Part shown: positions 3,501 to 56,299 of the stretch, piece by piece
How positions within the stretch are numbered: the stretch's first letter is position 1
Layout: every line of letters starts with the position of its first letter
Assembly: GCA_964016885.1 (NCBI GenBank)
Contig: OZ024743.1
Location: forward strand, 42,532,001-42,596,000
Length of the DNA: 64,000 nucleotides
Source: Eledone cirrhosa
Taxonomy: Eukaryota
Reading direction: 5' to 3'
Notes under the pieces: generated by a model
The model's database searches: none
What the model saw: only the letters and a program-made list of their open reading frames with translations
What the model was told of the DNA's origin: nothing
Program-made: the position numbers and the translations under genes

Positions 3501-3812
3501 GATGATAATGTTTTTGAGAATTATGTTAGTCTTGTGTATTATCTTTTGGTTCTGTTTGGAGTTCTGGATCTTAGGGAGGGTGTCTCGTTCCCCCATGTCA
3601 GATTCTTTCATTTTCATCCATTCGATCATAATTTCATCCTTCAAGTTGGCAAGTTCATACTCATTCATTTCTTTATCATTTACGATCTCATTGTTTTCAT
3701 TTTGAGTTTCATCTTCAGCATGCACTCCCTCCACTTTTTCGATCCTTTCTTTAATTTGTTCTGTTGTCAGTGATTCCTACCCAACCCTGGGATCCGAAGT
3801 GTTACAATTTAC
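527..3812 (-). mobile_element. R4/Dong-like RLE non-LTR retrotransposon, family A copy A1; 5'-truncated, multiple frameshifts
   Basis: ORF fragments carry RT motifs (WIDYKKAFDS, HLFYMDDLK), a CRVC...HIISMC zinc finger and an RLE region. Highly similar to 3847-7356. (TAA)n on both sides. Confidence 0.92.
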
Positions 3813-3846
<34 letters not shown>

Positions 3847-3847
<1 letters not shown>

Positions 3848-6800: not shown

Positions 6801-7351
6801 GATGCATAATAGAGATGATTTAAGTCAGTAATGTTTAGTTTGTTTGTGATGATAATGTTTTTGAGAATTATGTTAGTCTTGTGTATTATCTTTTGGTTCT
6901 GTTTGGAGTTCTGGATCTTAGGGAGGGTGTCTCGTTCCCCCATGTCAGATTCTTTCATTTTCATCCATTCGATCATAATTTCATCCTTCAAGTTGGCAAG
7001 TTCATTCTCATTCATTTCTTTATCATTTACGATCTCATTATTTTCATTTGGAGTTTCATCCTGAGCATGCACTGCCTCCACTTTTTCGCTCCTTTCTTTA
7101 ATTTGTTCTGTTGCCAGTGATTCCGCCCCAACCCTGGGATTCGAAGTGTTACAGTTTACCTCGTTTTCACTGACACATGCTTCATTTTCCCTTCGCTGAC
7201 TTTGTGCTACTAGCTTGATCTGATCAATTTCTATATCAGTTAGTAACTTTTTTCTTACAATATTTCTTCGTATATTGGCTAGTTTGTTACTATCAATATA
7301 GCCTCTGTTTTCGGGATGTTTCTTTTTCCAGTTGATATATGTTTGTTCTGT

Positions 7352-7356
<5 letters not shown>
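3847..7356 (-). mobile_element. R4/Dong-like element family A copy A2; 5'-truncated, near-intact ORF
   Basis: 864 aa ORF plus upstream ORF 6590..7411, joined by a frameshift in a T9 run near 6614-6622. (TAA)n flanks. Confidence 0.95.
3988..6582 (-). CDS. Reverse transcriptase + CCHC zinc finger + PD-(D/E)xK restriction-like endonuclease (family A)
   Basis: NYRPITCL, QGDSLSPLLF, YMDDLK, CRVCKKQPETIDHIISMC, RHD, NRPDI...IDMSVP...K..KY. Confidence 0.93.
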   Translation of the reverse strand: MLIETIKQKVSAKAARIRRFEKRSRFYTDNNMFKNNQRNFYRKIGKSTITAKSIPPKEEVQEFWEKIWAEEKVHNIHAPWIDRQMKETAHLEEQTWENITVEQLRLALRKTSKWKSPGKDKIQNFWINAFTESHELLAQLYNEIVKEPEKIPSSLVNGITFLLPKNDETNNPKNYRPITCLTTMYNILSSVLTEYTYDHLITNDLFPIEQKGCKRGSYGCKDQLLVNKMILEDCHNRHKNLSIAWIDYKKAFDSLPHSWIEKCLEIFKISPVVRRFLSFSMRTWRTTLLLNSETKSLEAGEVNINCGIVQGDSLSPLLFCIALIPLSKMLNETKHGYRAYDKTINHLFYMDDLKLFAKNDEQLQGLLSTVKQFSDDIKMEFGLDKCAKATFTRGKLLKSSDINLDRGNVIRELDQEQTYKYLGVCEGDGIKHSTMRERIRKECYRRVRAILRTELNARNRIDAINTLAIPVVTYSYNVINWSSTDIRRLDTKIRKFLTMHRMHHPKADIDRIYLPRKEGGRGLIQLDIALKTATIRLSTYLKESHDWMIKLVLKHESTKRSYSITKDAQRYSNGLQISEVPFTAEMENTENAKQVKVTAKKELLQKLAKNWQEKPLYGKYPERANNPDVDKTLTHQWLASSGLKSETEGLIISAQDQCLPTKNYQANIIKNGCSPLCRVCKKQPETIDHIISMCSPIAPTEYLNRHDRAAQYIHWIMFKHFDLPHQKNWWEHQPPPILEKDHISILWNFSIQTDRKIDANRPDIILKDFQRRVCLLIDMSVPIDKNVSIKTFEKLSKYKDLEIEIGKMWKLRTKTIPVVVGALGMIPKGSNDYLSQIPGNPRIGEIQKIVLMGTAHILRKILSI

Positions 7357-7382
<26 letters not shown>

Positions 7383-7394
7383 GTTATTGTTATT

Positions 7395-7481
7395 CCTTGA
7401 ATCTCAGTCATTGATGTTGGTTAACTGGAAAGTCCGTTGGATTGAATATCAAGCCACTACCTGCAGCCTCAGATATTCAGG
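7395..7481 (-). mobile_element. 87 bp 3'-terminal fragment of family B element
   Basis: Identical to the first bases of 7528 onward and bounded by (TAA)n tracts. Confidence 0.9.
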
Positions 7482-7601
7482 TATTATTATTATTATTATT
7501 ATTATGATTATTATTGTTATTGTTATTCCTTGAATCTCAGTCATTGATGTTGGTTAACTGGAAAGTCCGTTGGATTGAATATCAAGCCACTACCTGCAGC
7601 C

Positions 7602-10289
7602 TCAGATATTCAGGACGTATCGGAGGGTTCTTGCTGTTCCAAGCAAGCATGACTTTTGAAGCGTTCCAAAAAGCGTGAAGGGGCCGATTTTCTTTAACCA
7701 TCCCTGGAAACCTTTGGAGATAGTCCCCAGTGCGCCTATGACAATCGGGATCACTTTGACTTCATGGCAGTTCCAAATCCTTTTCACCTCCCTCTTTAGG
7801 TCCTGGTATCGGTTAATTTTCTCCCTCTCCTTCTCTTGCACTCTCGTGTCGAACGGGCAGGCCACATCCACAATCAGGCATGATCTTTTTTCTTTGTCCA
7901 CAACCACCAGGTCAGTTCTATTGTGTTCCAGTTTTTTGTCCGTCTTTATCCTAAAATCCCACAGCACCTTCACCTGACTGTTCTCCATCACCGCCTCTGG
8001 CCTATGCTCATACCATTTCTCAGAATGTGGTAGATTGTTTACTTTGCACAGGTGCCAGTGGATCACCCTGCCCATCACATCGTGTCTCCAGCCCTTATAG
8101 TGGGTCTGGCCTAGGTGTTTACACTCGGACACAATGTGAGCCACAGTCTCCTCTCTCTCTCCACAGATCCTGCACAGTGGGCTAGCCTCCTCCTTGTAGA
8201 TATGGTGCTTCAACCACTTCGTTTTGAGGGCCTGCTCCTGCGCAGCCATTAGCATTCCTTCTGTAGCCTTTTTGAGGTCTCCTCTTCTCAACCAGTTCCA
8301 TGTCTGTGGATCTCTAAATTCAGTTTTCTCAAAGAAGGTACTATGAAGGGATTTTCCCTTAAGGCTGCTCTTCCTCCATGATGTTATTTCCTCCTTGGAT
8401 ATCCCCTGGCCTACTGTCCCCTCCTTCAGTACAGCTCTGAGCATTGGCTCCTTACTATAGGTCACGTATTTGTATAGGTTGTTTTTCTCCATCTGAACAC
8501 AGTCCTCTATGCTGATAAGACCTCTTCCACCCTCAGATCTCCTTAGGTAGAGTCTATCGACATCACTCCTCTTGTGGAACATGTTGTAGATAGTCAATAG
8601 CTTCCTAGTCTTCCTATCCATTTCTTTTTGTTCAGCAACATTCCATCTCAGAATTCCCGCACTGTACCTAATAATAGACACAGCTCGGGAATTTACTGCG
8701 CTTATGGCATTTCTGCTGTTCAGATGTGACTTCAATACGCTCCTTACTCTCCGAATGTATTCAGTTCTTAACAATTCCTTCATTTTTTTGTTCTTTATGC
8801 CATCAGCCTCCAGAACGCCCAAATACTTGTATCCTTCCTCAGAGTCAATTTCCTTTATCATCTCACCTGTTGGTATCTGGATCCCGTTACTTCTGCTCAA
8901 CCTACCCCTCTTCATCACAATGACTCCACATTTACCAATACCAAACTGCATACGTATATCACTGCTGAAAATACGGACAGTGTCAACAAGCACATCCAAC
9001 TCCTTCTCACTTTTCCCGAAGAGCTTAAGATCGTCCATGAAGAGGAGGTGATTGATGGTAAGCTCTCCCCTTCCCAACTTGTATCCTGCTCTCACTTTTC
9101 GCAGCATAATGGTCAAGGGCATCAGGGCAAGGACAAACAACAGAGGGGACAGGCTATCTCCCTGGAAGATACCTCTCTTGATCTTCACGCTTCCCAAGGA
9201 TACTCCAGTTGATGTCAACTCTGTCTCCCAGGACCCCATACTCCTGCCCAGCAACTGTCTGATGTTATCTGCCACCCTGAAGATCTCCAGGCTTTTGGTG
9301 ATCCAGGAATGAGGCACCATGTCAAATGCCTTTCTGTAGTCTATCCATCCCATGGCAAGATCAGTGTGTCTCCTCCTGCAATTCCCCATTACCATCTTAT
9401 CAATAAGCAACTGGTCCTTTGTACCACGAGACTTCTTTCGGCATCCTTTCTGTTCGTCCGGTAACAAGTTCTTTGTGTGGAGGTGATGGTAGATTTCCTC
9501 AGACACAATGCTCGTCAACAGTTTCCACATTACGGGCAGACATGTGATAGGTCTATAGTTGGTAACATCATTACCCTTGATTCGGTCTTTCATTATCAGA
9601 ACTGTGGTACCTTTTGTCAACCACTCTGGCACCTCACCCGACACCAAGCAGTCATTGAACATGGCCGTCAGCTTCGGGTGGAGGGATGTTAAATGTTTAA
9701 TCCAATACCCCTGCACACCATCTGGGCCTGGTGATTTCCAGTTGGTTAGTTTTTTGGCTTGCCCCTTAAGAGTTTCAACTGTGATACTCAAATCAGTCTG
9801 TTGTTGTGCCTGCTCACCGATCTCCCTCTGTACTGTCTCAATCCACCCTGCCTGGGCATTGTGTCTAACATCCTGCTCCCATATTCCTCTCCAGAATGTT
9901 TTAGCTTGTTCCGCCCCAGGGATCAAGTCGTTGCCTCTTTCTTTCCCCTCAAGCTGTCCAAACAGCATCTTCTGGTTGTTGTCGAACATGCGGTTCTGTT
10001 TATACTGACTGACTCTGTTCTCGTATCGCCTGATTTTGGCACTCTTTGCTACAATGCGTTGCTTCAATTCCTCTATGATAATATTTAGCTTTTTACTCCT
10101 AGTTTTGTATTTTATTTCCAGTCTATGTTTAGTGCCTATGTTTTTTAGTGTCCCATTCAGTAGGGACTCAAGCTTTCCTATGTCATTTCTCATTTCCCCG
10201 ATTTGCCCACTCAGTCGCTTCTTCCACCACGGCTCTGCTCTTTCTTGTCTGTTGTTTCCTCTCGCTTTTATACCAAGTAGTTTCCTCAC
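7602..10289 (-). CDS. RT + CCHC zinc finger + restriction-like endonuclease (family B)
   Basis: NYRPITCL, WIDYRKAFD, GIFQGDSLSPLLF, FMDDLK, CRICGEREETVAHIVSEC, RHD, NRTDL...VDVACP...EKINRY. Confidence 0.93.
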   Translation of the reverse strand: MRKLLGIKARGNNRQERAEPWWKKRLSGQIGEMRNDIGKLESLLNGTLKNIGTKHRLEIKYKTRSKKLNIIIEELKQRIVAKSAKIRRYENRVSQYKQNRMFDNNQKMLFGQLEGKERGNDLIPGAEQAKTFWRGIWEQDVRHNAQAGWIETVQREIGEQAQQQTDLSITVETLKGQAKKLTNWKSPGPDGVQGYWIKHLTSLHPKLTAMFNDCLVSGEVPEWLTKGTTVLIMKDRIKGNDVTNYRPITCLPVMWKLLTSIVSEEIYHHLHTKNLLPDEQKGCRKKSRGTKDQLLIDKMVMGNCRRRHTDLAMGWIDYRKAFDMVPHSWITKSLEIFRVADNIRQLLGRSMGSWETELTSTGVSLGSVKIKRGIFQGDSLSPLLFVLALMPLTIMLRKVRAGYKLGRGELTINHLLFMDDLKLFGKSEKELDVLVDTVRIFSSDIRMQFGIGKCGVIVMKRGRLSRSNGIQIPTGEMIKEIDSEEGYKYLGVLEADGIKNKKMKELLRTEYIRRVRSVLKSHLNSRNAISAVNSRAVSIIRYSAGILRWNVAEQKEMDRKTRKLLTIYNMFHKRSDVDRLYLRRSEGGRGLISIEDCVQMEKNNLYKYVTYSKEPMLRAVLKEGTVGQGISKEEITSWRKSSLKGKSLHSTFFEKTEFRDPQTWNWLRRGDLKKATEGMLMAAQEQALKTKWLKHHIYKEEASPLCRICGEREETVAHIVSECKHLGQTHYKGWRHDVMGRVIHWHLCKVNNLPHSEKWYEHRPEAVMENSQVKVLWDFRIKTDKKLEHNRTDLVVVDKEKRSCLIVDVACPFDTRVQEKEREKINRYQDLKREVKRIWNCHEVKVIPIVIGALGTISKGFQGWLKKIGPFTLFGTLQKSCLLGTARTLRYVLNI

Positions 10290-10368
10290 CGTATTTGCTG
10301 TTGCTTTGAGGATATTGTTGCACTGGTGAAGACTCCTCGCGTCAAGGTATGGGATGACTTTGTTTACC

Positions 10369-10995
10369 TTAGCTGTTGTTTCTTTTAACTTTTTTCCTGT
10401 CTACAAATCTTAGGTTCATAGGTCTCCCACTATCATTGTTCAACTCATCTACCACTAAATTTAGGATGTCAACCGAATCTTGTCCTAGCCCGTCAGCATT
10501 CATCTCCTCAGTGGCCGTATCTCTGTTCCAGGTATTATTTATCTCAGTATTCAGATCATTGTCTGCTTCGGGTGGTTCCTCCGTTCTCAGGACCTCCTCA
10601 CCTTCATTTCCCGCCGGCTCGCTTGTCTGGCATACTACACCCGCCATCTCCAAGCCATTCTCTCTGCTCAGTTCCTCCAGTTCCAGCTCGCTTATCCACC
10701 CATTAGTTCTTATTACCCGAGCCTGCCCGGCCAATTTTTGTTCATCTAATTTAAATAAACCAATCTCGTTCCAGATGTTATGCATCCGTCTCCTGTAGCC
10801 CCTCTCCTTGGGGTTACTTTTCAGGTAGCATTGCATAACAGTTCTATTCAATTCTTTCGTCCAGTTGGTTCTGGCCCCTTTCCTTCTTCTTCTTCCTCCA
10901 ACATCAGCAGTATTTGGTTGACAGTCAGGTTCCTGCTGCTGAGCCAGGGGGCACCTGTTGGGTGAGAGTCTGTCACATGACGTTCTAGTCTCCAT
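10369..10995 (-). CDS. N-terminal part of the family B ORF (frameshifted from 7602..10289)
   Basis: RTNWTKELNRTVMQCYLKS...YRRRMHNIW resembles the R4-type N-terminal DNA-binding region. Homologous to 16613..17059. Confidence 0.8.
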   Translation of the reverse strand: METRTSCDRLSPNRCPLAQQQEPDCQPNTADVGGRRRRKGARTNWTKELNRTVMQCYLKSNPKERGYRRRMHNIWNEIGLFKLDEQKLAGQARVIRTNGWISELELEELSRENGLEMAGVVCQTSEPAGNEGEEVLRTEEPPEADNDLNTEINNTWNRDTATEEMNADGLGQDSVDILNLVVDELNNDSGRPMNLRFVDRKKVKRNNS

Positions 10996-12063
10996 TTCAC
11001 CGTTATTCGAACTGTTTATGTTCGATATTTAAACACTCTTATCGAGGATTGGCGAATGTATGTTTACATAGCCATCTGTGGATCCGCCATCCCACTTGGC
11101 CCTTGTGTGGCATTATCACCACGCTGTATACGAACACACATAAACAAACAAACACACGGGCAGAAAGGGCCCCAAAAATGAATAAGCATAAGTTTCATTG
11201 TAATGTAGTATTCGAATGTCTGACTTAGTTTTTGTTTTTTAAGTTTTACTTTTTCCCCCCTCTTCTCTGTCCGTCCGCCTGCTTCTCTCTTCATTCTTAT
11301 TTTCATTACGTTTTTGGGGTTTCTTTTTTTGTTTTTGTTTTTCTCTGTTTGTTTTTCTCGTTTTTTGCTGTTGTTGCTGTGCTGCTTTGGTTTTGTTGTT
11401 TGTTTTTTCTTTTTTCTTTTGAGTCTATCTATATATTTTGATGCCTTCCTCTTTGTTAGTAGTAGGAGTTCTATAATGTGGAAGTGGCAGCCAGCAGAGA
11501 CTGGCGGCGTTGGCGATACTGAGACAGTGGTGGTGGTGATGTCGATACCGAGGCAGTGGTGGCGGTGATGCGACCGTATTACTGTAGTGATGGTGCTGTA
11601 GCGGTGGCAGCAGCAGTGAAGGAGTCAAGGGGTGGTGGCGGCGGTGATGGGATAGTGGTGGTAATGATGGCCGTAGTGAGCGGTGGCGGTGAAGGTGAAA
11701 ATGCTGTTGTGTTTAGTGTACACAGATGATGGGGTGGGTGGTGTATCTAGTTTCTGGTGTTGGTGAGTTTAGCTGTCCTATATAGTGTAGCCAGAGGAGA
11801 GGAGGGGGGGGGGGGGGTTCTTCTTCTTCCATTTATAGCCATTTTTTTTTTTTGGATATACAGTGTACAATACAAAGTTGAATATGTGAATATTTGAGCC
11901 TTATAACAATATATTTTGGGTCCGAATTTTTTGGGGCTCAAGCCGGGTGCTTTACGTAGCATTTGTACTAAGAGTTGTTATTTCACAAATGATTTAAATA
12001 TGTTAAAAATTCAAAACTTACGGGAGCGATTTCATGACCTCCGTCACCTCGTGCGTCTTCTTC

Positions 12064-12139
<76 letters not shown>

Positions 12140-12140
12140 G

Positions 12141-13085
12141 TTCTTTGAGTCTCAGTCATTGATGTTAGTTAACTGGAAAGTTTGTTGAAATGAATATCAA
12201 GCCACTACCTGCAGCCTCAGATATTCAGGACGTATCGGAGGGTTCTTGCTGTTCCCAGCAAGCATGCCTTTTGAAGTGTTCAAAAAAGCCGGGCGGGGCC
12301 AATTTTCTTTAACCGTACGTGGAAACTTTTTGAGATAGTACCTAGTGCGCCTATGACAATCGGGACCACTTTGACTTCATGGCAGTTCCAAATCCTTTTT
12401 ACCTGCCACTTTAAGTCCTGGTATCGGTTAATTTTCTCCCTCTCCTTCTCTTGCACTCTCGTGTCGAATGGGCAGGACACATCCACAATCAGGCACGATC
12501 TTTTTTCCTTGTCCAAAACCACCATGTCAGGTCTATTGTGTTCCAGTTTCTTGTCCGTCTGTATCCTAAAATCCCATAGCACCTTCCCTGATCGTTTTCT
12601 ATCACCGACTCTGCCTTATGCTCATACCACTTCTCAGAATCTGGTAAATTGTTTACTTTGCATAGGTGCCAGTGGATCACCCTGCCCATCACATCATGTC
12701 ACCAGCCTTTATAGTGAGTCTGGGCTAGGTGTTTACACTCGGATACAGTGTGACCCACAGTCTCCGCTCTCTCTCTACAGATCCTGTTCAGATGGGCTCG
12801 CCTCTTCCTTGTAAATATGGTGTTTCAGCCACTTCGCTTTGAGGGCCTGCTCTTGCGCAGCCTTTAGCATTCCTTCTGTAGCCTGTTTAAGGTCTCCTCT
12901 TCTCAACCAGTTCCATGTCTGTGGATCTCTGAATTCCATTTTCACAAAGAAGGTACTATGAAGGGATTTTTCATGAAGGTTTCTCTTTCTCCTCGTTGTT
13001 ATTTCCTCCTTGGTCACCCCCTGGTCTATTGTCCTCTCCTTCAGTACAATTCTGAGCATTGGCTCCTTACTATCGGTCACGTATT
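12141..13085 (-). mobile_element. Family B copy B2; 5'-truncated, decayed
   Basis: Homologous to the B1 3' ~950 bp, with frameshifts. (TAA)n flanks. Confidence 0.92.
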
Positions 13086-13108
13086 TATTATTATTATTAT
13101 TATTATTA

Positions 13109-13668
13109 CAGCTGCATTTATCTTGCTTTATGTTCATACGAGTTATCACCAAGTCACAACTAGTGATCTCAAGAGACAACAAGGTCCGCCATGTTCAAGA
13201 AAGAACATACATACTCACACATGCATCTTTAGGTGTTTAGACTTGTGATGTACTTATATTGACAGAATCTTCCTCAGTATATGGGCAGTTCCCATTAGTA
13301 CTATCTTTTGTATTTCTCATATACGCGGGTTTCCTGGGATTTGCGATAAGTAATCATTAGACCCCTTAGGTATCATTCCTAGAGCGCCTACAACCACTGG
13401 TATTGTTTTAGTTCTCAATTTCTACATTTTTCCAATTTCTATCTCCGGGTCCTTATACTTGCTCAATTTTTCAAATGTTTTTGTAGATACATTCTTGTCT
13501 ATTGGAACGGACATATCAACCAGCAGGCATACCCTCTTTTTAAAGTCCTTCAGTATTATATTAGGTCTATTTGCATCTATTTTTCGGTCTGTTTGTATGC
13601 TAAAGTTCCACAAGATTGAGATGTGATATTTTTCAAATATGGGAGGTGGTTGATTCTCCCACCAATTA
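13109..13668 (-). mobile_element. Family A copy A3; 5'-truncated 3' fragment
   Basis: Same 3'UTR as A1/A2 and the WNFSIQTDRKIDANRP endonuclease segment. (TAA)n flanks. Confidence 0.92.
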
Positions 13669-13691
13669 TTATTATTATTATTATTATTATT

Positions 13692-16600
13692 CTTTGAGTC
13701 ATTGATGTTAGTTAAATGGAAAGTTTGTTGAAATGAATATCAAGCCACTACCTACAGCCTCAGATATTCAGGACGTATCGGAGGGTTCTTGCTGTTCCCA
13801 GCAAGCATGCCTTTTGAAGCGTTCCAAAAAGCGTGAAGGGGCCAATTTTCTTTAACCATCCCTGGAAACTTTTTGAGATAGTACCTAGTGCGCCTATGAC
13901 AATCGCGACCACTTTGACATCATGGCAGTTCCAAATCCTTTTTACCTCCCACTTTAAGTCCTGGTATCGGTTAATTTTATCCCTCTCCTTCTCTTGCACT
14001 CTCGTGTCGAATGGGCAGGGCACATCCACAATCAGGCACGATCTTTTTTCTTTGTCCACAACCACCTGGTCAGGTTTATTGTGTTCCAATTTCTTGTCTG
14101 TCTGTATCCTAAAATCCCACAGCACCTTCACCTGATCGTTTTCTATCACCGACTCTGGCGTATGCTCATACCACTTCTCATAATATTGTAAATTGTTTAC
14201 TTTGCATAGGTGCTAGTGGATTACCCCGCCTATCACATCATGTCTCCAGCCCTTATAGTGAGTCTGGGCTAGGTGTTTACACTCGGATACAATGTGAGCC
14301 ACAGTCTCCTCTCTCTCTCACCATAGATCCTGCACAGTGGGCTAGCCTCCTCCTTGTAAATATGGTGTTTCAACCACTTCGTTTTGAGGGCCTGCTCTTG
14401 CGCAGCCATTAACATTCCTTCTATAGTCTTTTTAAGGTCTCCTCTTTTCAACCAGTTCCATGTCTGTGGATCTCTGAATTCAGTTTTCTTAAAGAAGGTA
14501 ATACGAAGGGATTTTTCCTGAAGGCTGCTCTTTATCCTTGATGTTATTTCCTCCTTGGACATCCCCTGGTCTATTGTCCTCTCCTTCAGTACAGTTATGA
14601 GCATTAGCTCCTTACTATCAGTCACGTATTTGTGTAGGTTGTTTTTCTCCATCTGAACACAGTCCTCTATGCTGATAAGACCTCTTCCACCTTCAGATCT
14701 CCTTAAGTAGAGTCTATCGACATCACTCCTCTTGTGGAACATGTTGTAGATAGTCAATAGCTTCCTAGTCTTCCTATCTATTTCTTTTTGTTCAGCAACA
14801 TTCCATCTCAGAATTCCCGCACTGTACCTAATAATAGACACAGCTCGGGAATTTACTGCATTTATGGCATTCCTACTGTTCAGATGTGACTTTAATACGC
14901 TCCTTACTCTCCGAACGTATTCAGTTCTTATCAATTCCTTCATTTTTTTGTTCTTGATGTCATCAGCCTCCAGAACACCCAAATACTTGTATCCTTCTTC
15001 AGTGTTAATTTGCTTTATCATCTCACCTGTTGGTACCTGGATTCCGTTGCTTCTGCTCAATGTACCCCTCTTCATCACAAGGACTCCACACTTACTAATA
15101 CCAAATTGCATACATATATCATTGCTGAAAATACGGACAGTGTCAACAAGGACATCCAACTCCTTCTCACTCTTCCCGAAGAGCTTAAGATCGTCCATGA
15201 AGAGGAGGTGATTGATGGTAAGCCCTCCGTTTCCCAACCTGTATCCTGCTCTCACTTTTCGCAGTATACTGGTCAGGGGTATCAGGGCAAGGACAAACAA
15301 CAGAGGGGACAGACTATCTCCCTGGAAGATACCTCTATTGATCTTCACGCTTCCCAAGGATTCTCCAGTTGATGTTAACTCTGTTTCCCAGGACTTCATA
15401 CTTTTGCCCAACAACTGTCTGATGTTATCTGCCATCTTGAAGAACTCCGGGCTTTTGGTGATCCAAGAATGAGGCACCATGTCAAATGCTTTTTGTAGTC
15501 TATCCATCCCATGACAAGACCAGTGCGTCTCCTCTTGCAATTCCTCATTACCATCTTATCAATAAGTAACTGGTCCTTTGTACCACGGGATTCTTTCGGC
15601 ATCCTTTCTGTTCGTCCGGTAACAAGTTCTTTGTGTGGACGTGATGGTAGATTTCCTCAGACATAATGCTTGTCAACAGTTTCCACATTACGGACAGACA
15701 TGTGATAGGTCTATAGTTGGTAACATCATTACCCCTGATTCGGTCTTTCATTATCAGAACTGTGGTACTTTTTGTCAACCACTCTGGTACCTCACCTGAC
15801 ATCAAGCAGTCATTGAACATGGTTGTCAGTTTCGGGTGGAGGGATGTTATATTTTTAATCCAATACCCCTGCACACCATCTGGGCCTGGTGATTTCCAGT
15901 TGGTTAGTTTTTTGGCCTACCCTTTAAGAGTTTCAACTGTGATACTCAAATCAGTTTGTTGGTGTGCCTGTTCACTAATCTCCTTCTGTACTGTCTCAAT
16001 CCACACTGCCTGGTCATTATGTTTAACATCCTGCTTCCATATTCCTCTCCAGAATATTTTAGTTTGTTCCGCCTCAGGGATCAAGTCGATACCTCTTTCT
16101 TTCCCTTCAAGCTGTCCAAACAGCATCTTCTGGTTGTTGTCAAACATGCGGTTCTGTTTATACTGACTGACTCTGTTCTCGTATCGCCTGATGTTTGCAC
16201 TCTTTGCTACAATGCGTTGCTTCAGTTCCTCTATCATAATATTTAGCTTTTTCCTCCTAGTTTTGTACTTTATTTCCAGTCTACTTTTAGTGTCTATGTT
16301 TTTTAGTGTCCCATTCAGTAGGGACTCAAGATTTCCGATGTCATTTCTCATTTCCCTGATTTGACCACTCAGTCGTTTCTTCCAACAAGGCTCTGATCTT
16401 TCTTATTTGTTGTTTCCTCTCGCTTTGATACCAAGTAATTTCCTCACCGTATTTGCTGTTACTTTGAGGATATTGTTGCACTGGTGAAGGCTCCTCGCCT
16501 CAAAGTATGGGATGACTTTGTTTACCTTAGCTGTTGTTTCATTTAACTTTTTCCTGTCTACAAATCTTAGGTTCATAGGTTTCCCACTATCATTGTTCAA

Positions 16601-19554: not shown

Positions 19555-20211
19555 TATATATATATATAAATCAGGAAAGAAGATTGACACGGTTTGCTAT
19601 ACAAAAATGGTTTTTAATCTCATTGCTGACAATTGTTTCTCTGAACTGGTAGGTCTAGAGATCGCTATTCGCTTGTTTTCACGTTACTCGATCGCCAATA
19701 CAAAATTATAACCAGTCAGTTCTTCGGAGCATGCGAGAATGAAGAGGATATACAGGCATGAAAGGAATATACAGGCTACTATATGAAGTAGTAATGGCAT
19801 TCAGTTACAACAATAACACAATAACAACAATTACAACAATGCTAGTAATAAATTATTTGAGATGATCCTGACATTATACTAGGTGGGGGGGGGGGGGGTA
19901 GAGTGTATCTAAGATGTTGGCGTGTAAAACTAGCTGACATGAAGCAGAAGTATAAAGTTGACATGTAAAGATTGTCGTAGGGTGTATTATATCAATTTTA
20001 AAGATAAGCCGGTGTTTATAAACAATGTAGGTCAGGTGGCCGTAATGTTCAGTTTTTATCTGACCGACGAAGCATTTATCACTGAGTAGAATTTGTGTGG
20101 TCTATATTAGATGAGAGTACAGTCTCTCTTTTCCATCCTCAATAATATACATGTATAGGACAACACTGTCAAAGCTAAATAATCGGCAAGTTAATACAGA
20201 GGTTAAGGAGG

Positions 20212-20260
<49 letters not shown>

Positions 20261-20329
20261 TATATAGACACACACGCACGTGCACACGAGCCTAGTGTAC
20301 ATGTGCACGGTCAACTCGGATAACTCAAC

Positions 20330-20660
20330 CTGACATTACATTGGATCCACTGCGGGTTCTTTTAAAATAAGATGGTATGTGCACAGGAACTCGATGAAAA
20401 ATCGTGCACTCATGGGTTCCACAACCCTCGCCAAAAAAATATGGGAACTGAAGGACAACAACACTAACTACAGTATTAACTGGTCGAGGTTGTCGGCTGA
20501 TAAAACCTATAGTACAGGTATGTCCCACTGCGGGCTATGTGATCTAGAACTAATGTATATCCTTAAAAATGTGAAAAGGCTACTTAACAATAAGCTAGAA
20601 AGATCTATCTTCTGCAGACATAGAATTGCCACTAAATTCATAAGATTCAAACCTCCGTGA
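20330..20660 (+). pseudogene. PLE GIY-YIG endonuclease C-terminal fragment
   Basis: STTLAKKIWELKDNNTNYSINW...CGLCDLELMYIL...LLNNKLERSIFCRHR matches the typical PLE tail (IW.LK...C.LC..E...LLN.R.E....CRH). Confidence 0.8.
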
Positions 20661-20997
20661 ATCGAACCAACATAACATAGCTTTAAACTAGGATACCCAC
20701 TACCCTGCATGAATCACCACAGAAATATACTCATTAAGTACATTCTAGCCTTCTCAGTTCTATACCACACAAATGTCTGTAAGTACCTCATCAACCCATA
20801 AACTTATTTCTTCTCAGCTGCTGTCATCACATGATCCTAAATCCAAGAAATGTTCAAAACACTACTACAATGTAACTTTACCTTCCTCTTGCCATAATTA
20901 TAGTCAACATGTTTTTCTCTTTGCATGTATGTACGTATTTGTACGAGTGTGTATTGATGAGTATGTATATGTCTGTGTGCACGTGCGTGTGTGTATA

Positions 20998-21054
<57 letters not shown>

Positions 21055-21517
21055 CCTCCTTAACCTCTGTATTAACTTGCCGATTATTTAGCTTTGACAG
21101 TGTTGTCCTATACATGTATATTATTGAGGATGGAAAAGAGAGACTGTACTCTCATCTAATATAGACCACACAAATTCTACTCAGTGATAAATGCTTCGTC
21201 GGTCAGATAAAAACTGAACATTACGGCCACCTGACCTACATTGTTTATAAACACCGGCTTATCTTTAAAATTGATATAATACACCCTACGACAATCTTTA
21301 CATGTCAACTTTATACTTCTGCTTCATGTCAGCTAGTTTTACACGCCAAAATCTTAGATACACTCTACCCCCCACCTAGTATAATGTCAGGATCATCTCA
21401 AATAATTTATTACTAAATTGTTGTAATTGTTGTTATTGTTATAACTGAATGCCATTATTACTTCATATAGTAGCCTGTATATTCCTTTCATTCCTGTATA
21501 TCCTCTTCATTCTCGCA

Positions 21518-21625
21518 TGCTCCGAAGAACTGACTGGTTATAATTTTGTATTGGCGATCGAGTAACGTGAAAACAAGCGAGTAGCGATCTCTAGACCTAC
21601 CAGTTCAGAGAAACAATTGTCAGCA
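21518..21625 (+). ncRNA. Type I hammerhead-like ribozyme with enlarged stem II (inverted copy at 19624-19731, minus strand)
   Basis: TGCT-CCGAAGA-[A CTGA CTGGT...ACCAG T TCAG A]-GAAA-CAATTG-TC-AGCA. Stem I is TGCT/AGCA, loop III is palindromic, the site is GUC, and the core has a U4C variant. Confidence 0.7.
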
Positions 21626-21851
21626 ATGAGATTAAAAACCTTTTTTGTATAGCAAACCGTGTCAATCTTCTTTCCTGATTTATTATTACTCCAAGTGTTT
21701 ACAACATAGGAATTACAGCATACTCGCAACATCACTATGAAAACGCCTTGTTGAGTCAAACTTAGCCGAGCGTTGATATCATCCACTACCCGGAATACCA
21801 TAACTGGACTACACCTAAGTGGACTGCATATAAATATTATTTGTTACCCCG

Positions 21852-22164: not shown

Positions 22165-25100
22165 CTACAGGATGGTATACAGAGAAGGCCCATTTACACG
22201 AGCCATTCTCGCCACTATCACCCACCTTTCATAAAACTGCCTGTGGCCAAGCACCTCTCTCTCCATTCTTATCCTTCTTCCGAAGTGATATCGGAAGAGG
22301 TAGACCAGACTATGGCCAGAGAGGAAGTTGCCTGACCTCAGACCTTTCAATCGTGTCCACCAAACAACCTCTTTCAACATGGCTATTACGCACAGAAAAA
22401 CCGCCTTTGCTTCCTTTGTGAAGAGGGGAGGCGGTTTGATTGTCATCACGGATTCGGCGGTCAATTGAATCGGCGCCACCCGCGACAGCAGTTGTTCGGC
22501 GTAGCCCCACAGATCAGCCACGCCCGGACATTGCACCAATGCGTGCGCAACGGTTTCTTCGTGACGCACGCATCTAGGGCAAATCTTTTTTGAGGGATCC
22601 CTGCCCGGGCGCCCGTGTCTGTAGAGCCTCTCTCGAACGGGTAGAGCCCCCCGGTAGCACTGCCAGGCCAGTGACTTCTGGAAGTTGTCCATTGGTCCTG
22701 GGCCGAAAGTCCTACCGAACAGGCTGGCCAGTTCGTCTTCTTCCATGTCCAGCGACCCTCCAAGGGTGTCATCGCCCCTGCTAGCCACCAGCCCTCTATA
22801 GAATGATGAGGTGGTTTCTCTACCGATGGCCTGGCCCGCTTGCCAGAGAGCCCTGAGCGCCTGAGCACACTCAGTGTGCCAGTCTCCCAGTTTTCCGGAT
22901 CTTTGCTTGACCCAGGACTGTAGCTCGGTGAGCGAAACGAGTCTCGGAAAGGCTCGTTTCACGAACGGAGCCCACACCGGTTGACCAGTGAGGAATACCT
23001 GTAGGTGCCGTAGCCTTAATGCGTGCCTACGCATCATCAACCACGGCATCCCCAGCCCTCCTTTCGAAGGTTGTTGGCAGCAGATGGATCTTCTCACCAT
23101 AGGAGGGCGCTTCTTCCAAAGAACTTGGAAGAGCATGCGTTCCATGGTGGTGAGTGTTTCCTAGGGCAAGGCACGACAGTCAAGCGGTAGTAAGTGACGG
23201 ACGCTATGTAAATGTTCGCCACCTCCGCCCGGCCTTTTAGGGACAGATTACACTTGGCCCATTTCTGGGTTAGTGCAAACACCGTGTTCGTAACCTCGTT
23301 CCAGTTCTTTTCCACCTGGAGGTCCGGTCCAAACCAGACCCCAAGCAACTTTACCGGGCCCTCCGTCCAGTGTCCGACGACACCGTCAGGAGGCATCGGT
23401 CTGCCTCTCCACGTTCCGAGTTGCAGCCCGATGGATTTTTCCCGGTTCAGTTTCGCTCCTGACAACCTTTCGTAATCCTCCAGTAAGGTACCGATCGCAT
23501 CGATGCCGAGTCGGTCGATACCATTACTGTTACGTCATCGGCGTAGGCCGACACCGCTTTGCTCAATCCTGGTTCCAGGGGGATACCCTGCAACAACTCC
23601 AACTTCCTCAGTAAAGGCTCGAGAGTCAATACGTACAGATGGGAGGAGAGAGGGCACCCCTGTCGAATGGATCGTTTGATTTCGAACGGCTTCGAAAGGT
23701 AGCCGTTCACCTTGATCCTAGAACAGATGTGGTTGCTATGTAAGGCAGTGATCCAGCCTCCATAAACAGGACCGAACCCAGCCGCCGCTAGCACCGCATC
23801 CAGGTAACCATGGTCGACCCTATCGAAGGCCTTAGACTGATCCAAGTTGATCAGGGCCCCACCGAAGCCGGGTTTGTTGCCAACCCTCTCTATGATGTAT
23901 CGCATGAGGTGGAGGTTATCGTGAATGGACCGGATGGGATAGCACATGTCTGCGCATCTCCCACCAGGCCACCCACGACAAGCGCCAACCTCTTTGCTAA
24001 CACCTTGGCCAAAATCTTTAACTCTGCGTTTAGCAGGGTTATGGGCCGAAAATTATTTATACTATCTCCCTTGTCTCGTCCTTCCTCACCAGCGTGACTA
24101 CGCCCTTGGCTACAGAACAAGGAATTCTCCCGTTCTGCTGCCAATTGTAGTAGACCGCTTCGAGGAGTTCGGAGAAGAAGACCGACATTGCTAAATAAAG
24201 TTCGTAAGGTATACCATCGAGACCTGGAGATTTGCGTCTGCTGCATTGGCTCAGCGCATCTCCGATCTCATCAGCCGAGATTGGTCCCTCGCAGGACTCT
24301 GCCTCTTCGCTCGAGAGACGCGGACCCTCGCCTCCCCCGAATAATCGGGCAAAGTGCCTTTGAAAGGCCTCGCACATCTGCTTAGGCTCCCGGATCACCC
24401 GTCCATCTTCGTCTTGCAACGACCGGATGGTGGATCGATTTCCACTCTTAGCTTCTGTCACGCGGGCCCAGCCAACGGCTTTGGTCCCCTCATTACCTAG
24501 AGCACGTATTTTACTTCGAATGACGCAGCCTTCGTGCTTTGCATCGAAAAACTGGTTCAAGGCCGTCCTCGATGCCAGCACTCTGGCCACATCTTCGCTC
24601 TTGATTGCCTCTTCTAATTTACCTGTTAATTCTTTCTCGTTTCTATTCCTATCGGCAGCTAACATCTTGCTATAACTTATTGATTCTGTTCTAATCTCTC
24701 TTTTGAGAGATGCCCACCATCGGTTGTTGACGATTGCACCCGTCAACCTCTCCTTAACTAATCTGCTAATCCGGTTTCTGTAAGTCTCTTTTGCCGGTAA
24801 AGACAAATTAAGTTTCCAGTAACCGGGACCCTGTTTATGTGTTTTCTCGAGATTGACTACGCAGGTCACTAATTTGTGATCCGTGTAGCCCACCGTGCGC
24901 ATTTCTGGACAGCTTAATATATCCCTATCCTTTCTTCTAACTAAGAATCTATCTAAGTACGATCTAGATTGACCACTGTGGTTTCTCCAAGTCTAGGTAG
25001 GCACAGTTGGAAAATCTAGTCGATATCTATAGACCAAGTTAAAACGGTCGAGTAACCCCTTGAGGCTGTTACACCCCCTCTATTAGGACATGCTCCTGCA

Positions 25101-25555
25101 TAGTCCCAACGTGCATCTAGGATGTCATTCCAATCCCCCGCTAGAAGCAGGGAACGCGACGTTCCCAGAAAAGTCTCCAAACGCTGGAAGAAGTCGGGCC
25201 GTTCAGCTCCGAAAGGGGAGTAGACGGCGACCAGTCTCAAGGCCGCACTTTCACTACTGCCAACGTCTAGCACCAACAAACGACCCTCCGAGTCCGAGTG
25301 CACAACCTGTACGGCAAGACCCAGGTGTTTTTGCAGCAGTACGACAACCCCACCCCCACCTCCAGGTTGTCAGAGAGATGCATGCACCTCAAAGTCATCG
25401 AAGGTGGGGGCCAGCTGCCGCACGACGCTGATTCGAGTCTCACAGATAACCATTACATTTATACTACATGACCTGAGGTCATTTAGAAGCTTTGCTTGCT
25501 TCCAAGTTGAGCCAAGGCCACGTGCATTCAGACATCCTACTCTTAACACATCCAT
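22165..25555 (-). pseudogene. Tx1-like ORF2 (APE-RT-zinc finger), broken into at least 7 frames
   Basis: Consecutive ORF pieces 25370..25555, 25016..25303, 24057..24902, 23447..23947, 23094..23465 and 22165..23145. Confidence 0.9.
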
Positions 25556-25588
25556 GTGGGCGGCAGAGCCAAAGGAGAGTGTAGAGAC

Positions 25589-26875
25589 CTACCTTTCCGC
25601 TTCCCGGGGTTCGGGTTGCACGACTTCCATGGGGTCGGGGGTGTTGGGTGAAGGAGTGTCTTGTGGTGGTGTGGGGTCGTCAGTGTGTGGTGGGGTTGGG
25701 GTGTTTGGAGTTGTGTTGGGGAGGGGAAGGGGAGGGGGAAAGCTTTTTAGTAGGACGCGGTTTATGGGTTTGACAGAGGGTGGTCCTACGTCCTCCTTAA
25801 AATCCTTTTTTAGTTTTTGGTAGAGGTTCATTGGGATCTTTATTAATTTTAAATGTGGGTAGTTTTCTGAAGAAACAAAGTTTACACCTTCGGTTTGTAC
25901 CGAAGGATTATTGTATATGAGTTCATTTAATTTATTATTGTTTCTGTTGATGTAAGTATAGTGTAATGTCTTTTTTTCGGATGGTGTGAGTGTTTCGAAG
26001 AGGGGAGGGGCAGGTTTGGATTTGTTTGTTGCTGGAGGGGTGTTTTCTGTTTTGTTGGATTGTGTTGAGATTTGGGTGGGGGTTGTTTGGCTTTGTGTGT
26101 TTTGCAAATGTTTTCTTTTTTTCCTTTTAATCTGTCTGAAGGACTCCGTTTCTTCCTCCGAATTCGTTGGGTTATCTTCAGTGTTGGAGGGAAGAGGTAT
26201 GTTTGCTGGTAATGTTTCCATGTTGGTTTTCTTTGTGGGGGAGATGGATGTCACTATGTTAGACTGTGTTGTGTGTTGTGTCTGCGGTGGTTGTGTTGTT
26301 CTATTGAGTGAGAGGTTGGGTGGGCCTGTATTTTGTTTTGGGTTAAAGTGTTGTGACTGTTTGTGTTGCGGTGGTGGTGTGGTTTTACTGAGGGACGGGT
26401 TGGGTGGGACTGAGTTTTGTTGTTTGTTTATCTGTTGTGGTGGTGGTGGTGATGGAGCTGGTGTTGGTAGCAGGGTTTTCTTTTTGTTGAGTTGGGGACA
26501 AGCGGCCTTCAGGTGCCCTCTGCCTGCACAGATATGGCAGGACGGCCTTCTCCCCTCCACGCTAATGTTTATATACCCGTGGCCCTCTAATAGGATTCTG
26601 TCGGGTATTTGGGCGATGCGTTCAGGCTTCATTTGCACTACCAGCTCTATACCTGTTCCACTGAACGCATTGCCTGTGGTTTTCCCAATGGAAATCACGT
26701 TGTCATTCACTGGATCGATGAAGCCAGCTATGAGCCAGCAGTAGTCCACATCTGGCATCATTGCATCCAGCCATATGCGTTGAGTTCTTTTACCCATATA
26801 AGATGGATAAAAGGTAAAATTTTTCGAACGAATCGGTGACAAAGCACATTTTTTTGCCGCCGATTCGTTCTTCAT
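25589..26875 (-). CDS. Tx1-like ORF1 (gag-like CCHC knuckle, Pro/Thr-rich tail); N-terminal pieces at 26911..27521
   Basis: VEGRRPSCHICAGRGHLKAACP motif, located directly upstream of ORF2. Confidence 0.8.
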   Translation of the reverse strand: MKNESAAKKCALSPIRSKNFTFYPSYMGKRTQRIWLDAMMPDVDYCWLIAGFIDPVNDNVISIGKTTGNAFSGTGIELVVQMKPERIAQIPDRILLEGHGYINISVEGRRPSCHICAGRGHLKAACPQLNKKKTLLPTPAPSPPPPQQINKQQNSVPPNPSLSKTTPPPQHKQSQHFNPKQNTGPPNLSLNRTTQPPQTQHTTQSNIVTSISPTKKTNMETLPANIPLPSNTEDNPTNSEEETESFRQIKRKKRKHLQNTQSQTTPTQISTQSNKTENTPPATNKSKPAPPLFETLTPSEKKTLHYTYINRNNNKLNELIYNNPSVQTEGVNFVSSENYPHLKLIKIPMNLYQKLKKDFKEDVGPPSVKPINRVLLKSFPPPLPLPNTTPNTPTPPHTDDPTPPQDTPSPNTPDPMEVVQPEPREAER

Positions 26876-27791
26876 GATAATTGCTAGGCTTCCATACAGT
26901 CTGTCTTTTCTTATGAAAGTGGTTTCATTAAGTACTTCTGTGAGTACTGTTTTGATATCTGCTTGAGAAGGCTGTTCAGGTTTTTTGTACTGTTGTTGAT
27001 GGTGCGGAACTTGACCGTTCGGCTTTCAATGTCTTTGGTGAATTCTTGAGGCATTTTTACCGATAAAATACCATTCTCTCCTTCACTTATGTATTGTTTG
27101 GCGTCTGTGTTTCTTCGTGCCACATCTGAAATATTTTCCGGTATATAAGTCAAAGATTTCTTTGTTGTCTGTGCAAATGAAATCTTGTCGTCTGCTTTGC
27201 TTTCTGTTATGGTGTTATTTTCAAATGTTATTTTTGTGTTTGTTGTGTCTTTGTTTGTGTTATTAGTATTGTCATGCAATTTTTCAAATTTATTTTTCCG
27301 TTGTTGGAATCCATGTCCAGATTTGTGTTTTCGTCATTTTTTTTCTCCGCAGATTCGTCTGTTTTTATTTTTATTTTTCCTTCCTTCTCTATGACGTTAG
27401 TGAGGAAGGAAGGGGGGACTAAAGCGTGCGAGCTTACAACTCTTACGGCTGTCCCCCCACCACTATTTCCGTTCGCTGCGTTTAACATTTCTGTTAGACG
27501 ATTGAAATTTGTTTGCCACAAAATTTTTTAAAACAGGTTTTTCACCTCTAGGAGGGGTAAAGATGAGCTGACCCACCACCTGACAGTTCAGACGGGGGGT
27601 CAAGCTACACAATTGTATCAAAATTAAATTTGAACTCACAAAATTTCCGCAATAAATTTGAACAAAACTTCTGCGCGAAGTGAATTACATCCACACTGTA
27701 GAACAGACGACAGCTAGATTACATATAGATAGATAGATAGATAGATAGATAGGTAAATATACACGGGTGTGTATGATTGTGTATAGAAGAT

Positions 27792-28041
27792 TATATTAAT
27801 AAGAGGAATTCCAACTTTGTCTGATTTACTCGTTTTATTTACAATCCTTTAAAATTTATAATGGTATTATAATGAAATAGTATGATAGAATATTAAATTC
27901 TAAGTGTTAATTGAACGTTCAATTAACACTTAGAATTTAATATTCTATCATACTATTTCATTATAATACCATTATAAATTTTAAAGGATTGTAAATAAAA
28001 CGAGTAAATCAGACAAAGTTGGAATTCCTCTTATTAATATA
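27792..28041. repeat. Perfect 250 bp spacer-less palindrome derived from a PLE terminal repeat
   Basis: Axis GAAC|GTTC at 27916/27917. The arm is homologous to 56297-56419. Confidence 0.93.
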
Positions 28042-28619
28042 TATATATATATACGTTGGTAGAAGTATATATATATATACATAGATACAGACATATGTGC
28101 ATATATATATATATATATGTTTGTGTGTGTGTTTGTGTGTGTGTGTGTGTATGTGTGTATGTGTGTGTGTGTGTGCGAGTGTCGGTGAGTATCCGAAACA
28201 TAAACTGAAAACAATTGACACAATGAAGAAATATGTTAGTTTAACGCTTGATATAACAGGAATATGGTCTTAACGTTTCAGACTTTAATCCTTCATTAGA
28301 ATATAGGATGAGAAAGAAATAGAAATATAGTGATGAGTGAGGAGATTAAGAAACAGAAAAATACTTTGGAATAAATGCAAGCATGATTTCAGTGAATCAG
28401 TTTGGGGAAGTCAGTATATATGTACGTTTGTGTGTGTATGTGTGGGTGCGTGTGTGTATGTGTGTGTGTCTGTGTGTGTGTGCGTGTGTGTATGTGTGTG
28501 TGTGTGTTAAAATAAATTCAGTGTGACCATAAAAAGAGCTTTTTTATTGTTATTCTATATAAGTGAAAGTGTTTCCTTCCTTCTTCGTTTGTAACAAGTA
28601 AACGTTCAGACTATATTCT

Positions 28620-46320: not shown

Positions 46321-46807
46321 TAAACGGAATAGAAAATGCTAATAAATTGTTCACAGTTGAAAAATGGTTTAATTAGTAATAAAAGAGTATTAGTGATTGT
46401 ATGGGTTAGCATTCAGTTGTGGTTTTAAGTTTTTAAGTTTTTACCGGTTGCGCATTTCTAAATGCTTTTCAAAAATAATTTTGAGATAGAGTGTCCGTGT
46501 TGTTTGCTCTGATCTGATTAGTTTTGGGAATTCTACCTGTTTTTATGTTAAAAAAGTGGCTCCAGCGTTACTTTGGTGTTGCAAAAATTCTTGTGGTCAA
46601 AACAATTTTGATTGGTCGGTAGAGGTCATGTGAATGTAAAAAATTGATTTTGCGCCAAGACTGTTTTTATGTTAAAAAAGTGGCTCCAGCGCTATTTGGT
46701 GTTTGCAAAAATTCTTGTGGTCAAAACAATTTTGATTGGTCGGTAGAGGTCATGTGAATAAAAAATTGGTTTTGCGCCAAGATTGAGAAATGACTCTTTC
46801 ACAACAA

Positions 46808-46883
<76 letters not shown>

Positions 46884-47238
46884 AGTAGTAGTAGTAAGGT
46901 GTTCGATGTTGTGATAATGGTTTTATTGTTAAGATTTTTGATGTTCTATTAAGAGAACCGATTTTACTGAAAAAATCGAATAATGTACACCATTTTACCA
47001 TTTTGAAAAAAAATACTGGTCCACCCACACACACACACACACATATATATATATACACACACACATACACACGCGTACATCAACATACAAAGAGACTTAT
47101 ACACACACACACACACACACACACGCACTTCTCCGTATAAGACAAAAGCTGAAAAATATCTTTTGACATGCTAAAATACGCCCCATTGCTTTCAGACACA
47201 TTCTTACTGACCATCCCTGCTACCACGAATTACTCTGC

Positions 47239-47309
<71 letters not shown>

Positions 47310-47375
47310 ATCTTAATAGCCATTTGACACACATCCCTGCTAACCATTATCACAACATCGAACACCTTACTACTA

Positions 47376-47423
<48 letters not shown>

Positions 47424-47786
47424 TTGTTGTGAAAGAGTCATTTCTCAATCTTGGCGCAAAACCAATTTTTTTATTCACATGACCTCTACCGACCAATCAA
47501 AATTGTTTTGACCACAAGAATTTTTGCAACACCAAAGTAACGCTAGAGCCACTTTTTTAACATAAAAACAGGTAGAATTCCCAAAACTAATCAGATCAGA
47601 GCAAACAACACGGACACTCTATCTCAAAGTTATTTTTGGAAAGCATTTAGAAATGCGCAACCGGTAAAAACTTAAAACCACAACTGAATACTCTTTACAA
47701 TCACTAATACTCTTTTATTCCTAATTAAACCATTTTTCAACTGTGAACAATTTGTCAGCATTTTCTATTCCGTTTACCAATATATA
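46313..47786. repeat. Large inverted repeat (arms ~46313-46922 and ~47342-47786); the left arm has a ~125 bp tandem duplication
   Basis: TATTGGTAAACGGAATAGAAAATGCT... mirrored by ...AGCATTTTCTATTCCGTTTACCAATA. (TA)n flanks. Confidence 0.88.
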
Positions 47787-52148: not shown

Positions 52149-52181
<33 letters not shown>

Positions 52182-52533
52182 AAGAATCAGTATATCTAGT
52201 AACATATATATACACACAGATGCATACTTATGCTAGCAAATATATAGGTTTTGTCTTAGTAACTTTGCGGTTCAATGCATGGGGTTGCAGAACAATAATA
52301 TGAGAGACGTAAAATAAGAAAATTATAAAATTAACTTATTTACTAAAATTTCACTCCCAACTAATTAGTTTCTGAAGGGGATTGATTCTTTTGAATTTGC
52401 CACCGACGCAGTAGGCAGTGATTTTCTCAGTGGCTAGGAATGTAGACCACGCTTTGCTTTTTTCTATCCACTGAATTATTTTTGTATAAGTTCCCAGTGT
52501 CCACGTATTGCCTGGAAACTTAGCTGAGAATAG

Positions 52534-52616
52534 ACTTCCCTGATGACGAAAGGCTTCTCTGTACACATCTTCGGAAAGTATGTTTATTCCCTTTCAGAAA
52601 CTAATTAGTTGTGAGT
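52534..52616 (+). ncRNA. Type I hammerhead motif, copy 1
   Basis: ACTTCC-CTGATGA-C-GAAAGG...CCTTTC-A-GAAA-CTAATTAG-TT-GTGAGT. Confidence 0.65.
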
Positions 52617-53058
52617 GAAATTTTAGTAAGTAAGTTAATTTTATAATTTTCTTATTTTACGTCTCTCATATTATTGTTCTGCAACCCCATGCATTGAACC
52701 GCAAAGTTACTAAGACAAAACCTATATATTTGTTAGCATAAGTATGCATCTGTGTGTATATATATGTTACTAGATATACTAATTCTTTATAATTATCTCC
52801 AAATTATTTGTCGAGCAAAATTGGCCAAGACTGCTGCTATGGTAACAGTCAGGCTGCTGTCTTCTTAACAAACCACTTTCCACTAATTGACCTCGATGTC
52901 ACGTGATTGATTCTTTTGAATTTGCCACCGACGCAGTAGGCAGTGATTTTCTCAGTGGCTAGGAATGTAGTCCACGCTTTGCTTTTTTCTATCCACTGAA
53001 TTATTTTTGTATAAGTTCCCAGTGTCCACGTATTGCCTGGAATCTTAGCTGAGACTAG

Positions 53059-56268: not shown

Positions 56269-56299
<31 letters not shown>

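Follow-up and report, generated by a model that had tools for sequence, protein, structure and literature searches.

In the window, by which we mean the whole 64,000-nucleotide stretch analysed here, a perfect palindrome at 27792-28041 consists of two ends of a Penelope-like element (PLE) placed head to head, and both arms start at the base that follows the predicted cut of a hammerhead ribozyme. This observation is confirmed and is more than chance. Genome-wide, head-to-head joins of the same family pile up at this predicted bond. We favor the explanation, with a probability of roughly 0.6, that two cDNAs, primed on the two strands of a (TA)n target that had been cut, were copied to an RNA end likely made by the hammerhead and were then joined blunt. 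Throughout, +1 denotes the G right after the predicted ribozyme cut, and negative numbers lie upstream of the cut.

The two halves of the inverted repeat, 27792-27916 and 27917-28041, measure 125 bp each and are separated by no spacer. It is the sole perfect palindrome with arms of at least 10 bp in the 64-kb window that is not simple sequence. The arms share 94.4% identity with 56295-56419, the PLE terminus to which the initial annotation had related them, and both begin at the base equivalent to 56419, the start of the predicted 3′ product, in agreement with its placement of the axis at the cut. It had also noted that no ribozyme core separates the arms; indeed the spacer is zero and the palindrome itself contains no core. 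The extent and symmetry described earlier need revision: the 125-bp arms stand, but the insertion is larger and asymmetric: the left arm extends as far as 27729, taking in the family tail, and the right arm is tailless. The parts are as follows.

27729-27916, minus strand: left arm, element +1 to +188 (through the tail), inverted; 96.3% identity over 190 columns in blastn against the full-length element.
27729-27791, minus strand: family tail, about +128 to +188, present on the left arm only, its end with a short tetranucleotide run.
27916-27917, no strand: axis with zero spacer, both arms starting at the G after the predicted cut.
27917-28041, plus strand: right arm, covering element +1 through +127 (reference numbering), the no-tail end, and followed by (TA)n.
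28042-28053, plus strand: remnant of the (TA)n target; past the left end of the insertion there is a short TA run as well.

The TA runs beyond both ends make a target duplication unreadable at this locus. A 6-nt repeat flanking the palindrome was rejected as a target duplication, its left copy being part of the tail. The related copy at 56.4 kb was rejected as the source of the palindrome, since it differs at 7 of 125 positions and belongs to another subfamily. Taken alone, the locus is an ordinary young insertion. It sits just past the 5′ end of a LINE-like element on the minus strand (22165-27500), which contains an ORF1 at 25589-27025 and endonuclease-RT fragments. Contigs from four sequencing runs (27450-28060) are broken up by the repeat, and none of the listed pieces bridges the axis, which leaves some room for an assembly or fold-back read artefact. 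However, the flanking sequences show no inversion, the arms stop at two sites typical of the family, one with the tail and one without it, and more than 1,000 loci have the same layout with varied centres. An artefact is extremely unlikely.

Family copies were gathered genome-wide by sequence patterns, and a pattern search with a 31-nt motif of the arm gave 6,124 exact matches in the 3.0-Gb genome, so that the copy number is at least 6,124. A full element was found at locus L091, with a 4,202-bp unit that holds an upstream frame and a 775-aa frame. The 775-aa frame matches RVT_1 with E = 2.9×10−06 (27.6 bits, under the cut-off of 29.6) and, at its C-terminus, GIY-YIG with E = 3.3×10−06, which is over the cut-off; a C-X4-C-X2-C linker lies ahead of the GIY-YIG region in its translation. 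An RT and, at the C-terminal end, a GIY-YIG are thus carried in one frame, and the family shows pLTR repeats, an inverted 5′ copy, an optional tail and an AT-rich target, as expected of an EN+ PLE. RT followed by a CX2-5CxxC linker and GIY-YIG is also the order in described EN+ PLEs, and Neptune and Nematis elements carry such a linker between RT and endonuclease (PMC8557442). The RT-linker-GIY-YIG layout points to a Neptune/Nematis-type PLE. Within L091:5084-8664 the upstream frame overlaps the RT-endonuclease frame in −1 phase, and a U UUU UUA slippery heptamer near L091:6353 may mark a programmed frameshift; this overlap and heptamer sequence is common to both L091 arms and one other locus, L213. 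A frameshifted ORF1 is mentioned for some PLE types (PMC8557442).

The window contains one further copy of the family, with the predicted ribozyme at its end.

56295-59215, minus strand: copy of the same PLE family truncated at its 5′ end, covering element 1568-4329; its frames for RT and endonuclease are decayed, and it is of another subfamily than the palindrome.
56420-56454, minus strand: part upstream of the cut of a putative minimal type I hammerhead, recognised by motif anatomy.
56415-56419, minus strand: 3′ strand of stem I, the predicted cut lying between 56420 and 56419.

A Pfam search with four decayed frames of the window gave no match. A 166-bp repeat (58312-58477) interrupts this copy, and relatives of the repeat lie at about 28620, 33327, 34829, 44670, 45840, 55723 and 60629.

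The hammerhead elements quoted by the initial annotation are present on the minus strand at 56420-56454, in the order stem I 5′ strand, CUGAAGA, an unpaired base, stem II, GAAA, a palindromic loop III and UU. On this strand of the 56.4 kb copy, stem I has 5 bp and stem II has 3 bp with a GAAA loop. The copy carries a stem II change that is found in only 3 of 93 aligned copies, and 57 of 95 copies are identical over the 35 nt of the core. Stems I and II form in the minimum-energy fold of the reference copy and are absent from that of the window's copy. The fold z-scores are not significant, and the aligned copies are too alike for any compensatory change to be counted. As the Rfam search of the whole window (E up to 1) returned no hammerhead family among its 130 matches, the hammerhead call rests on motif anatomy. 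The motif appears to be a minimal type I hammerhead, for which cleavage is predicted. A non-LTR retrozyme was rejected as the origin, given that the palindrome lacks a ribozyme core and derives from a coding element. Loop III includes an 8-nt self-complementary stretch (duplex −6.6 kcal/mol), and cofolding of two copies gives the dimer arrangement at −18.0 kcal/mol, against −5.0 kcal/mol per monomer. In the dimer model U17 could pair with A14, which counts against cleavage. The cleavage triplet, CUU, is a slow one. The short stem I, the unpaired base after A9, the very short palindromic helix III, the need for a dimer and the low expected activity are all shared with the minimal type I hammerheads described from the PLEs of metazoans (Cervera and De la Pena 2014, PMC4209133), from which the motif differs, as far as that source goes, in a stem II of only 3 bp and in a U-G-type context at 10.1-11.1 instead of the usual G-C pair. 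That report describes PLE hammerheads as having no in vivo evidence of cleavage (PMC4209133), and a later one still calls their function unclear (PMC8557442).

Among the first 100 copies listed, 3′ ends fall at +127 in 36 copies versus near +188, the end of the tail, in 58, and 63 of the 100 5′ ends lie between −74 and −63, with 22 at −73. The 5′ ends at −105/−106 and from −344 to −423 are in part alignment stops, caused by a subfamily indel or a microsatellite, and not true ends. A TATA box begins 31 nt before −73, and reversed CCAAT boxes are found further upstream. The pile of 5′ ends together with these boxes makes −73 most likely the transcription start. A 3′ splice site was rejected as an explanation of the pile, because the ends include bases before the AG and have no common upstream exon.

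Head-to-head joins are the ordinary product of this family. The join pattern near −73 has 1,079 matches and forms the main hot spot; among the 50 matches listed, about 28 have a centre of 3 or 4 nt and four have a single base, as classed by eye. About seven of these 50 carry an untemplated base after the end, a C in the cDNA sense, as cap copying would give (e.g., C1:56607561). We counted joins by axis window with 15-nt anchors. The window from −5 to +10, at the cut site, has 103 matches, compared with 26 from −20 to −5 (eight of them nested joins whose arms lack the ribozyme core), 27 from +11 to +25 and 21 from +18 to +33, the last two windows overlapping and using other anchors. A peak at the cut site had been set beforehand as the outcome on which the earlier proposal depends, and this peak is present. 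The excess over background is about 78 joins, or ~7% of the count at −73. The further suggestion that the ribozyme defines a way of making palindromes does not stand, as ten times more joins lie at −73 and head-to-head PLE palindromes were already described. The same join types occur at −73 and at the cut site, suggesting that the latter acts as another 5′ end of RNA.

The join types at the cut site were classed by eye at 49 loci, which come from 50 listed of the 103 matches. In 15 of the 49, the arms reach to +3 and from +10; in 12, one arm reaches +1/−1 and the other starts from +9, with 3-4 bases of microhomology and a 5-nt centre. Six have a 4-nt GAAC centre or a variant of it, four are perfect about AATT, three have an arm ending at +2 and one has both arms at −2. 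Three, the palindrome among them, end exactly at +1 without microhomology. The remaining five reach further upstream, two being perfect about the 8-nt palindrome of loop III and two being variants. Neither matched arm passes −2 at 44 of the 49 listed loci, though the pattern allowed arms to about −21; at one of these 44 loci a nested outer arm reaches −4. The commonest cut-site join has four bases of microhomology, so that +1 and −1 are indistinguishable in it. The exact zero-spacer join of +1 to +1 was found at two loci genome-wide, the one in the window and one at C4:311.39 Mb.

Could sequence account for these joins? Local self-complementarity (AATT, GTT/AAC) would then attract joins, and the locus in the window would be a chance hit or the central deletion of a longer palindrome. 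Microhomology does steer joins, the recurrent types dominate the listed cut-site joins, and 7 of the 21 joins in the +18 to +33 window lie on its best hairpin. Yet better matches nearby are used less. The 8-nt palindrome upstream of the cut has 2 joins plus 2 variants among the 49, whereas the weaker AATT just downstream has 19, and a 6-bp hairpin 20 nt downstream is used at seven loci genome-wide, all of one subfamily. The join of the palindrome, moreover, has no microhomology and recurs at the C4:311.39 Mb locus, which is built differently. Together with the persistence of an exact +1 excess under microhomology weights (below), these results make an origin from sequence matches very improbable.

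We then considered all copies that lose upstream sequence between −9 and +9, which gave 452 matches, of which 200 were listed. About 22 of the 200 listed rows looked like indels by eye and were left out of fetching. In the strict set, 25 of 178 rows with an indel or point change were dropped, leaving 90 distinct joins; in the wider set 25 of 177 rows were dropped. In the dropped rows an indel or point change had displaced ribozyme or arm sequence that was still present upstream, and several loci that look like segmental duplicates were collapsed in the distinct-join counts only. Ten of the 90 distinct joins in the strict set start exactly at +1, where 4.3% would be expected (P = 0.005), and 12 of 100 do so in the wider set (P = 0.001). 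The +1 excess holds under microhomology weights of 2 and 3 (P = 0.0004 and P = 0.0005, respectively), and the partners at +1 include unrelated flanks. Among copies joined to unrelated flanks, 4 of 34 are at +1, a weak peak, and the band from −2 to +2 is weakly enriched (P = 0.03 to 0.1). The largest number of distinct joins lies at +5 (14 of 90; the expectation varies with the weight given to microhomology, between 8.0 and 13.6 per 100). Position +1 is the one most above expectation, and counts fall upstream of −2.

These counts also bear on a reading without cleavage, in which RT stalls on the folded or dimerised ribozyme and the stalled ends are joined by short matches. In the model of the cofolded dimer a continuous 13-bp duplex spans +5 to −8, many ends are found at +3 to +5, a place that stalling at stem I would equally explain (19 of the 49 listed joins require ends only there), and ribozyme mutants of the anole element inserted normally in vitro (PMC11167929). 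Part or all of the peak could come from such a stall. However, stalling should occur at the duplex's 3′ foot (+5/+6), whereas the position most above expectation is +1, with unrelated partners, and the drop of counts upstream of −2 also speaks against it. Stem I alone is weak, the entire monomer folding at −5.0 kcal/mol. Several loci carry a short duplication followed by a restart at +1, and at L308 (C3:222071000-222073300) +1 to +843 is joined to +1 twice, in a head-to-tail tandem; both fit a physical RNA end. The L308 repeat looks like what an RNA circle or a repeated jump would give. On balance we regard a stall in place of cleavage as rather unlikely, though it is the strongest of the competing explanations.

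Several loci deserve a separate description. L091 is a full-length palindrome of 2 × 4.3 kb joined at the cut. The upstream partner at L308 ends in the same four bases as the left arm of the palindrome. L161, L202 and L294 have the same duplication of +1 to +48 followed by a restart at +1, and the surrounding joins differ. At L322 (C12:19397011), a poly(A)/poly(T) run of ~23 nt was captured between the arms of a cut-site join.

To address how two arms arise, we compared the arms of 109 pairs, a set enriched for cut-site joins by the way it was gathered. A tailed arm is combined with an untailed arm in 97 of the 103 classifiable pairs, against 47% by chance. The subfamily is identical on both arms in all 49 listed cut-site loci, and at five diagnostic sites the two arms agree to 89-100%, where random pairing would give 33-56%; one or more of these sites differ in 15 of the 109 pairs. 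The shared subfamily and the concordance suggest that both arms come from one source. Of the cut-site pairs, 19 have the tail on the arm that reaches further upstream, whereas in 18 that arm lacks it; among the −73 pairs the numbers are five and five. Later flipping of the centre by recombination between the arms could blur the tailed/untailed split, but pairs with 0-1 differences show both orientations, which counts against flipping.

The initial annotation had proposed that the cleaved RNA was reverse transcribed into one cDNA, which then snapped back and copied itself into the second arm. One source for both arms is as this would predict, the 3 to 6 nt at the centre of most joins are what priming from a hairpin would leave, and snapping back is known for R2 after full-length cDNA synthesis (PMC11371274). 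A snap-back should leave a loop of at least 3 nt, always on the tailed arm. The palindrome has no spacer, and a zero-spacer centre cannot be a hairpin loop; across pairs, the loop arm is tailed and untailed about equally, as counted above. A cDNA primed at the no-tail site has no tail to copy, yet in 18 of the 37 cut-site pairs the loop arm is untailed and the short arm is tailed. A single cDNA snapping back is therefore decidedly unlikely as the whole event; it could be one step of a two-primer reaction for the looped joins. Two primers would fit the arm pairs better, an interpretation favored by the tailed/untailed split and by its match to the anole element in vitro.

In the two-primer reaction that we propose, transcription of the element would begin 73 nt upstream of the cut, as the pile of 5′ ends and the TATA box suggest, and roughly 7% of the RNAs that leave head-to-head joins would be cut by the hammerhead acting as a dimer. 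The protein would then prime reverse transcription from both target strands, at +127 and at about +188, one site per arm; the two ends are seen here, and the chemistry is known in vitro for the anole element. Both cDNAs would reach the 5′ end of the RNA, where their ends would be joined. In the usual join an end would pair by 1 to 4 bases slightly back, which would give a centre of 3 to 6 nt. Since a zero-spacer centre is not a hairpin loop, in the rare join of this kind the enzyme may have jumped to the extreme end of the other cDNA, or ligation may have united the two ends. L1 twin priming similarly starts with both target strands priming cDNA on RNA, and the two cDNAs are joined by short matches. 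In L1 the cDNAs cover different parts of the RNA and an inversion results, whereas those of the Eledone PLE would cover the same part, with a palindrome as the product.

Two internal RT start sites that correspond to tailed and untailed ends were also reported in vitro for the anole PLE PAc (Frangieh et al. 2024, PMC11167929). In that system both target strands are cut and extended, the protein is predicted to be a dimer and the target is AT-rich; the ribozyme is dispensable for in vitro insertion, and no RNA reads began or ended at the cut (PMC11167929). In the Eledone family, by contrast, ~7% of head-to-head joins lie there, and each arm uses one of the two start sites. In R2, a self-cleaving ribozyme determines the template's 5′ end, as we suggest for the Eledone family, and after full-length synthesis the cDNA 3′ end can prime on the cDNA or jump templates (Zhang et al. 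2024, PMC11371274). R2 differs from the Eledone PLE in its HDV-like ribozyme, its site-specific rDNA target and, in the portion of the source concerned, the lack of a second primed arm, and long palindromes are not its standard product (PMC11371274).

Head-to-head inverted pLTRs, junction palindromes and a tail on one arm were already described for EN+ PLEs, and the Eledone family shares all of these and the (TA)n targets (Arkhipova et al. 2013, PMC3846280; Craig et al. 2021, PMC8557442). Its tail is ~60 nt, compared with 30-40 nt in the described elements. There, self-priming on an antisense template was taken to explain the palindromes, and resolution by the endonuclease to explain the tail; joins are mapped here to a ribozyme cut and a likely transcription start, unlike in the passages concerned (PMC3846280, PMC8557442). 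The head-to-head layout of PLEs is therefore known, and where they join is what we did not find in print: our literature search, which covered few subscription papers, returned no paper mapping PLE insertion joins to a ribozyme cut. The pile of joins at the predicted bond is likely evidence, drawn from DNA only, for the existence of cleaved RNAs and for their reverse transcription, and such joins can be counted wherever a good assembly is available. The pairing of tailed with untailed arms and the random side of the loop give a testable model of the inverted repeats, which would replace self-priming on an antisense template. We would give even odds to the broader proposal that PLE insertions record the 5′ ends of RNAs across the genome. 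On this view the second hot spot would be a fossil of in vivo germ-line cleavage that gives the position of the cut and a cleaved share of ~7%, and the tail rule would reflect a protein dimer that copies one RNA from both ends of the break, with palindromes as the default.

Other parts of the window also contain inverted pairs. Inverted repeats of 391 and 253 nt (97-98%) at 19566-21683 surround a GIY-YIG-like frame at 20334-20660, and this probably represents a further insertion of the head-to-head kind, by a Penelope-like element from a different family. Pairs measuring 220 and 209 nt (96-97%), also inverted, are present at 46431-47677 and 52173-52796. On the minus strand, 683-16400 holds nested and partly intact non-LTR retrotransposon frames (877 and 932 aa), in which restriction-like endonuclease motifs were recognised by eye.
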